The notes beneath the pieces were generated by a model. That model was not told where the DNA came from, made no database searches, and saw only the letters and a program-made list of their open reading frames with translations. Shown here piece by piece: positions 57,247 through 58,527 of a stretch of DNA of 64,000 nt. Made by a program: the position numbers and the translations under genes. Origin of the DNA: Escherichia coli (GTDB taxonomy: Bacteria > Pseudomonadota > Gammaproteobacteria > Enterobacterales > Enterobacteriaceae); the NCBI RefSeq assembly GCF_003790525.1, contig NZ_CP033635.1; one strand, 5' to 3'. Positions within the stretch are counted from its first letter, which is position 1. Each line of letters begins with the position of its first letter.

Positions 57247-58527
57247 TTACGGTTTGAAGTCCAATGGCGCGTTTTTGAACACTTCATATACTGCCTGGCT
57301 TGGTGGTTTCGGGATCTTCGCAAGTTTAGCTGCTGCTAACGCAGCCTGACAAAGTGCGGGATCGCCACCTTCAGGTTTGATATCCAGTAACATGCCATCG
57401 GGTGCCAGTTTTATGCGCAGCGTACAGGTTTTGCCTGCATAGGACGATGCGTCATAGAACTTACTTTCGATAGCAGATTTAATCTGCCCGGCATAGTTAT
57501 TGATATCGGCCCCTGATGCGCCATTGTTTTTAGTATTACCACTCCCGGCTGGCGAAGCATTGTTCCCTTTCGCCCCTCCCCCCGTTTTCGGTGCATTCTT
57601 ACCAGAGCTTAGCTCACCGAAAATATCATCTGCCTCTGCGGCAGCTTTTGCTGCAGCGGCTTTTTCAGCTGCTGCTTTTGCAGCTGCCGCTTTTGCAGCT
57701 GCCGCTTTTTTGTCTGCGGCGGCTTTTTCTGCCGCTGCTTTCTTATCAGCTGCTGCCTTTTCAGCAGCCGCTTTTTCTGCTGCTTTTTTGTCGGCTGCAG
57801 CTTTCTCTGCTGCCGCTTTCTTATCAGCTGCAGCCTTTTCAGCAGCCGCTTTCTTCTCAGCTTCTGCTTTGGCTTTTTCAGCAGCTTCAGTTGCCGCTTT
57901 CTTTCTTGCTTCAGCTGCAGCTGCTTCTGCCGCTTCCGCTTTCTTCTTCAGTGCCGCCGCGGCTGCCTCGGCTTTTTTCTGCGCTTCGGCTGCGGCTTTG
58001 GCGGCTTCTGCTTCTGCTTTTTTCTTCGCGTCTGCAGCCGCTTTCTTCGCTGCTTCTTCCGCAGCTTTTGCATCCGCTTCAGCCTTCGCTTTAGCATCTG
58101 CCGCCGCTTTCGCTGCCGCTTCTTCCGCTTGCTTCTGCTTTAACTCGGCCTGTTTTGCGGCTTCTTCAGCCTGCTTTTTCTGTTCCTGAGCCGCTAACCG
58201 CTCTTTCTCAAGTTGCTTCAGGCGTTCCTGTTCAGCCGCTTGTTTCTCACGCAGTTCTTCAGCAGCCTGCTGTTCCTTCATCTTGCGCTGCTCATCAGAA
58301 CGCTTCGCGCTTGATTCCTGGCTTTGCATGCGTTTGTACTGCTCAACTACCGCACCTGAATCAACCATGACAGCGTCGATGGACGAACCACCGCCGCCTC
58401 CGGCTGAAGCTTCTATATTCTCATCGAACGAACTCCAGATCAGCGCCGCAAATAAGATGACATGCAGCACTGCTGAAATAATTATCGCCCGTTTGAGCTT
58501 GTCGTTTTGTTCGGTTGCCTTTGACAC
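57247..58527 (-). CDS. tolA: Tol-Pal system protein TolA (426 aa), with long Ala/Lys/Glu-rich helical domain II
   Basis: ORF track 426 aa, MSKATEQNDKLKRAIIISAVLHVILFAALIW..., conserved C-terminus. Confidence 0.95.
   Translation of the reverse strand: MSKATEQNDKLKRAIIISAVLHVILFAALIWSSFDENIEASAGGGGGSSIDAVMVDSGAVVEQYKRMQSQESSAKRSDEQRKMKEQQAAEELREKQAAEQERLKQLEKERLAAQEQKKQAEEAAKQAELKQKQAEEAAAKAAADAKAKAEADAKAAEEAAKKAAADAKKKAEAEAAKAAAEAQKKAEAAAAALKKKAEAAEAAAAEARKKAATEAAEKAKAEAEKKAAAEKAAADKKAAAEKAAADKKAAEKAAAEKAAADKKAAAEKAAADKKAAAAKAAAAKAAAEKAAAAKAAAEADDIFGELSSGKNAPKTGGGAKGNNASPAGSGNTKNNGASGADINNYAGQIKSAIESKFYDASSYAGKTCTLRIKLAPDGMLLDIKPEGGDPALCQAALAAAKLAKIPKPPSQAVYEVFKNAPLDFKP
57630..58230 (-). repeat. 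Internal tandem-repeat region of tolA (degenerate 15-39-nt GCxGC(T/A)GC units encoding AAEKAAADKKAA-type repeats)
   Basis: Visible reiteration of gctgccgcttt(t/c)... units across about 500 nt. Confidence 0.7.

Follow-up and report, generated by a model that had tools for sequence, protein, structure and literature searches.

The tolA gene of the Escherichia coli contig NZ_CP033635.1 (assembly GCF_003790525.1), studied here in a stretch of 64,000 nucleotides that we call the window, is almost certainly a natural 14-unit allele of a known intragenic VNTR, derived from a 13-unit ancestor by one duplication and then inherited clonally. The gene measures 1281 bp and encodes 426 aa, compared to 1266 bp and 421 aa for tolA of K-12 MG1655 (b0739, NP_415267.1), and the length difference is an in-frame, exact 15-bp tandem duplication (AAAAGCGGCAGCTGC x2) at window positions 57680-57709. 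It is a case of natural variation that has already been described, and RefSeq already lists the allele as WP_000030636.1, the 426-aa TolA of E. coli SMS-3-5, whose tolA DNA is 100% identical to that of the window. The feature is a rare allele (~0.5% of complete genomes) of a published variable repeat, with a unit number inside the range known from natural isolates.

The tolA coding sequence occupies positions 57247-58527 on the minus strand, where it runs from a GTG start through 426 codons to a stop (ORF listing). Its neighbors on the same strand are tolR (58592-59020), a 142-aa ORF whose position with respect to tolA matches both K-12 and SMS-3-5, and tolB (55822-57114), an ORF at the place that corresponds to the annotated tolB of SMS-3-5. 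The gene order pal, tolB, tolA, tolR, tolQ, ybgC, ybgE, cydB is shared with both reference genomes, and the position of tolA between tolR and tolB in the ybgC-tolQRA-tolB-pal-cpoB cluster is confirmed (collinear with K-12 and identical to SMS-3-5). The NCBIfam equivalog NF007065 matches the window TolA over its full length with 558 bits (cut-off 213), and TIGR02794, the NCBIfam TolA equivalog, scores 311 bits (cut-off 59). The protein also appears to have the three-domain layout of TolA as defined in PMC10666116, that is, an N-terminal membrane anchor whose SHLS motif contains the essential His22, then the extended helical domain II, and at the C-terminus the globular domain III, and it is identical to K-12 outside the insertion, including the ...ISAVLHVILF... 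stretch. Judged by its sequence, the window product is predicted to be a full-length, functional TolA. Two plus-strand ORFs, 57500-58189 (229 aa) and 57591-58094 (167 aa), were considered as genes and rejected, being mirror images of the repetitive GC-rich Ala/Lys codons. The antisense plus-strand ORFs across the tolA repeat are rich in Ala, Phe, Ser and Leu.

Alignment of the window and K-12 TolA proteins gives 100% identity at the aligned positions and a single 5-residue gap, within the same operon context. At the DNA level, the two genes are separated by one 15-bp gap (gene positions 819-833) and by 16 substitutions of single bases, none of which changes an amino acid; the same gap opens against strain 3150 and WB61. 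Across the duplication, the window reads ...GAC AAAAAAGCGGCAGCTGC AAAAGCGGCAGCTGC AAAAGCAGCAGCTGAA..., and the unit missing from K-12 is one of the two full AAAAGCGGCAGCTGC copies, either 57695-57709 or 57680-57694. The longest period-15 self-match is a perfect tract of 36 bp (57674-57709, minus strand; 2.4 copies), composed of AAAAGCGGCAGCTGC AAAAGCGGCAGCTGC AAAAGC.

This short perfect tract is part of the variable repeat of domain II (57634-57855, minus strand; codons 225-298), which parses into 14 imperfect units, each 15 or 18 bp in length: KKAAAE KAAAD KKAAAE KAAAD KKAAE KAAAE KAAAD KKAAAE KAAAD KKAAAA KAAAA KAAAE KAAAA KAAAE. The K-12 tract has 13 (KKAAAE KAAAD KKAAAE KAAAD KKAAE KAAAE KAAAD KKAAAE KAAAD KKAAAA KAAAE KAAAA KAAAE), as do, by the same parsing, those of 3150, WB61, MEI003 and 2012C-4221. 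The extra KAAAA sits after unit 10 of the Lys/Ala tract, and the change in gene length amounts to a whole number (one) of 15/18-bp Lys/Ala units, in frame and inside the domain II tract. A preliminary description of this DNA had set 426 aa here against 421 aa in K-12 and placed the difference in the reiterated Ala/Lys/Glu-coding repeats between 57630 and 58230, an interval that covers about codons 100-300 of tolA, in domain II. Both lengths are right (ORF listing; MG1655 b0739), and the pairwise alignment it had proposed, in which equal lengths would have spoken against it, returns genes that differ by one 15-bp gap; the gap corresponds to one Lys/Ala(/Glu/Asp) unit at 57680-57709, within that interval. 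The tandem-repeat search suggested there likewise finds the tract: at 57635-57857, Tandem Repeats Finder reports 14.2 copies of a 15-bp period, along with higher-order periods of 33 and 78 bp.

The tract is well characterized in the literature. In MG1655, it is built from 13 imperfect repeats, each 15 or 18 bp long (Zhou, Michiels, Aertsen 2012 PLoS One, PMC3477136), and natural isolates (n=234) carry 8-16 units, with 13 units in 66%, according to the Res Microbiol 2012 survey (Zhou, Vanoirbeek, Aertsen, Michiels) in the form in which PMC3477136 cites it. In the laboratory, contractions occur at a frequency of at least 6.9e-5, are RecA-dependent and are raised in uvrD mutants; they typically remove five units and never involve units 12 and 13, and only contractions, never expansions, were detected (PMC3477136). 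The window allele agrees with this system in gene, tract and 15/18-bp unit structure, and its 14 units fall inside the 8-16 range. It differs in where the extra unit lies: between units 10 and 11, in the KKAAAA-KAAAE-KAAAA-KAAAE block, whereas the laboratory events are mostly five-unit contractions further upstream.

Among complete genomes, the allele is rare. SMS-3-5 and 22 others, 23 in all, share the 1281-bp gene at 100% identity; their sources are humans, chickens, dogs, a pangolin and water. The duplication junction, searched as a 45-mer, is found unchanged in 26 of 5,426 genomes, and 3 others carry it with a single mismatch; we count only these 26-29 (~0.5%) and leave out six weaker matches. 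Two of the weaker matches were checked as possible duplications and rejected, as both 2012C-4221 (1 of 4 at 93% identity) and MEI003 (1 of 2 at 87% coverage) are 13-unit alleles.

For a broader view of tolA length, we sampled evenly down the ranking of 5,425 matching genomes and obtained 59 full-length genes. The K-12 length of 1266 bp accounts for 38 of the 59 (64%, in line with the published 66% at 13 units), followed by 1311 bp (5/59), 1299 bp (4/59), 1251 bp and 1185 bp (3/59 each), and 1188, 1215, 1218, 1233 and 1265 bp (1/59 each). The length of 1281 bp was found once (1/59), in SMS-3-5, which is identical to the query allele and top-ranked by construction. Besides the K-12 length and 1281 bp, the sample holds eight in-frame lengths and one 1265-bp match. 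Representatives of the survey have 11, 12, 15 and 16 units, and the shorter survey alleles also lack the upstream KKAATEAAEKAKAEAE segment. All told, the unit numbers recovered from complete genomes are 9, 11, 12, 13, 14, 15 and 16, with the 1185-1218 bp alleles lying beyond the parser's unit count. The last four units, KKAAAA KAAAE KAAAA KAAAE, are unchanged in the nine other length classes fetched, whose differences lie upstream. Because the distal block is constant in these classes, the window allele appears unusual only in the location of its extra unit (distal block, units 10-13).

Comparison of larger segments places the allele in its lineage. Window positions 53706-64000 are 100% identical to SMS-3-5, and the remaining ~38 kb that were compared, tRNA array aside, differ by one SNP (27504) and one homopolymer indel; since the former segment is identical and the latter nearly so, the source of the window is, as far as the DNA indicates, a very close relative of SMS-3-5. 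At position 48761, the window has one T fewer in a T-homopolymer than SMS-3-5. A 9.6-kb query around tolA returns 23 genomes that are identical or within about one base, all with the longer gene, and the group that follows, at 99.5% identity (e.g., WB61), carries 13 units and falls short by exactly 15 bp.

Two genomes illustrate how the tract behaves outside the laboratory. EC17CM2 (NZ_CP190349.1; L016, positions 164-1366) has zero tolA SNPs relative to the window allele and has lost 78 bp (five units), so that its TolA has 9 units and 400 aa and retains the extra KAAAA. This 78-bp loss is a natural example of the laboratory five-unit deletions (Zhou et al. 2012) and fits the five-unit preference; it shows that repeat dynamics are ongoing in the same lineage. 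Res13-Sevr-PER07-33 (NZ_CP062811.1; L014, positions 1-1281; Res13 hereafter) also has a 14-unit, 426-aa tolA, in which unit 11 rather than unit 10 is duplicated (KAAAE KAAAE). Its allele and that of the window differ at 16 aligned positions, of which two fall in the units that distinguish the duplications; on this different background, the Res13 allele represents an independent duplication that arrived at the same length. Equal tolA length does not, as this pair demonstrates, imply the same allele. A BLAST search with the Res13-type junction 45-mer gave no match despite the presence of the allele in at least two genomes, probably on account of the low-complexity filter.

On this basis, we propose that the ancestor had the widespread 13-unit tract and that the 15 bp closing its unit 10 (AAAGCGGCAGCTGCA, Lys-Ala-Ala-Ala-Ala) were duplicated head to tail. 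Some 13-unit alleles (MEI003, 2012C-4221 and the Res13 background) share the GCT codon of the window allele in their unit 10, and a progenitor state is therefore present in the population. The duplication may have arisen by replication slippage (slipped-strand mispairing) or by unequal recombination between the adjacent units 10 and 11, which share 13-14 of 15 bases in plausible 13-unit progenitors (MEI003, Res13 background). Slippage and RecA-mediated unequal exchange are indistinguishable from sequence alone. The preliminary description had called these repeats slippage-prone, a claim that stands in part: the tract is indeed documented as hypermutable, but the published contractions are RecA-dependent, which points to recombination over pure slippage (PMC3477136). 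Once formed, the 14-unit allele was passed on clonally within the SMS-3-5-like lineage, as the comparisons with its members show.

Other accounts of the extra unit can be weighed against this one. The tract is highly repetitive, and short reads can mis-assemble tracts of this kind, so the 15 bp might be spurious, the product of a low-complexity repeat that was mis-resolved in sequencing or assembly. We give this practically no credence: the insertion is in frame and an exact unit, the junction recurs in 26-29 genomes, and the identity to SMS-3-5 extends over the whole of 53706-64000. The identical 1281-bp allele in 23 independently sequenced complete genomes likewise answers the concern over the assembly voiced in the preliminary description. 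A different question is whether the allele arose in situ or was acquired from another lineage by homologous recombination. E. coli core genes do recombine, and related 14-unit alleles exist on other SNP backgrounds, in 2021CK-01784 (9 SNPs) and in E7-1N7 and GF131 (99.5-99.6% over 9.6 kb). Import is nonetheless unlikely as the source, as the clone's flanks are 100% identical and the surroundings of tolA show no mosaic boundary among its members (9.6-kb flank comparison); moreover, recombination bears on the spread of the allele only, and the unit would still have to be duplicated once.

The remaining alternative concerns function rather than origin and holds that the tract acts as an adaptive contingency switch, with 14 units selected to tune Tol-Pal (bile salts, filamentous phage, group A colicins, CpoB coupling). 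The preliminary description had stated that the length of domain II can affect function, and published work bears this out: unit number alters deoxycholate tolerance, high-salt/low-pH tolerance and fd plating in variants measured at 2, 6, 8, 26 and 39 units (PMC3477136). Isogenic variants of 2-39 units all complement a tolA deletion at least partly; deoxycholate tolerance increases with unit number, with a 3.2-fold gain in plating from 13 to 26 units; high-salt/low-pH tolerance is optimal at 6-13 units; and phage fd plating falls to 28-43% of the wild-type level on all of the non-13 variants assayed (2, 6, 8, 26, 39 units) (PMC3477136). The deoxycholate and fd effects favor selection, as do the fixation of the allele in a widely dispersed clone, the position of the insertion next to the segment 280-313 reported to bind CpoB (PMC8928145), and the second, independent single-unit gain at the same spot in Res13. 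Against it, the change is of one unit, for which log-linear interpolation of the 3.2-fold effect (13 to 26 units) gives a calculated ~1.1-fold; the allele is rare, at ~0.5% of genomes, and 13 units dominate at 64-66%; fixation in one clone is what neutral hitch-hiking predicts; and colicin import survives large alterations of domain II (PMC10666116). Taken together, we hold selection for 14 units to be very improbable, and we return to a single duplication with clonal inheritance as the preferred reading.

The structural context of the insertion allows its effect to be estimated. TolA spans the periplasm with its helical domain II, and when this domain is replaced or lengthened, colicin import persists and outer-membrane stabilization is graded (PMC10666116). 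In AlphaFold models, it forms a hairpin ~220 Å long; residues 280-313 are reported to bind CpoB/YbgF (PMC8928145). Across Proteobacteria, the length of domain II varies from 110 to 335 residues (PMC12204202). The insertion adds ~7.5 Å of helix (~0.75 nm; 5 residues x 1.5 Å), or 2-3% of the modelled hairpin length, just N-terminal to the CpoB/YbgF-binding residues 280-313, whose sequence is unchanged. The phenotypic effect of the five additional residues is probably none or marginal, because natural variants already range from 8 to 16 units and TolA is expressed and works in constructs with 6-39 units. Some measurable effect of a 14-unit tract may nevertheless exist, since every tested non-13 variant lowered fd plating. 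One specific form of such an effect would be that the single-unit gain, lying in the otherwise constant distal block and next to 280-313, is non-neutral in that it puts the C-terminal arm of the hairpin proposed for domain II into another register and so alters how TolA couples to CpoB or transmits force in the SMS-3-5-like clone, at a site that is a recurrent target (the Res13 gain is one unit away); we rate this as highly unlikely.

The preliminary description, then, read this known polymorphic locus correctly, and the finding matters little. The 14-unit tolA is usable as a lineage marker for the SMS-3-5-like clone, which occurs in humans, poultry, dogs, wildlife and water. Single-unit gains at units 10 and 11, along with the 78-bp five-unit loss in a clone-mate, show a tract that is still rearranging in the wild, and they lend natural-population support to the laboratory picture of Zhou et al. 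2012.

Two further observations concern the neighborhood of tolA. Downstream of cpoB, the tRNA array (53706-54300, minus strand) comprises six genes (Lys, Val, Lys, Val, Lys, Lys), compared to seven each in SMS-3-5 and K-12; relative to SMS-3-5, one tRNA-Lys(UUU) copy and its spacer (~110 bp) are absent, which makes this another difference in tandem-copy number. A query of 24 kb did not rank SMS-3-5 at the top, and real divergence from that strain was considered as the cause and rejected, as the copy number of the tRNA array splits the match. Lastly, zitB (50719-51660, plus strand) is interrupted, so that two ORFs (50719-51159 and 51175-51660) take its place, matching the annotation of the SMS-3-5 gene as a pseudogene with an 'internal stop'.
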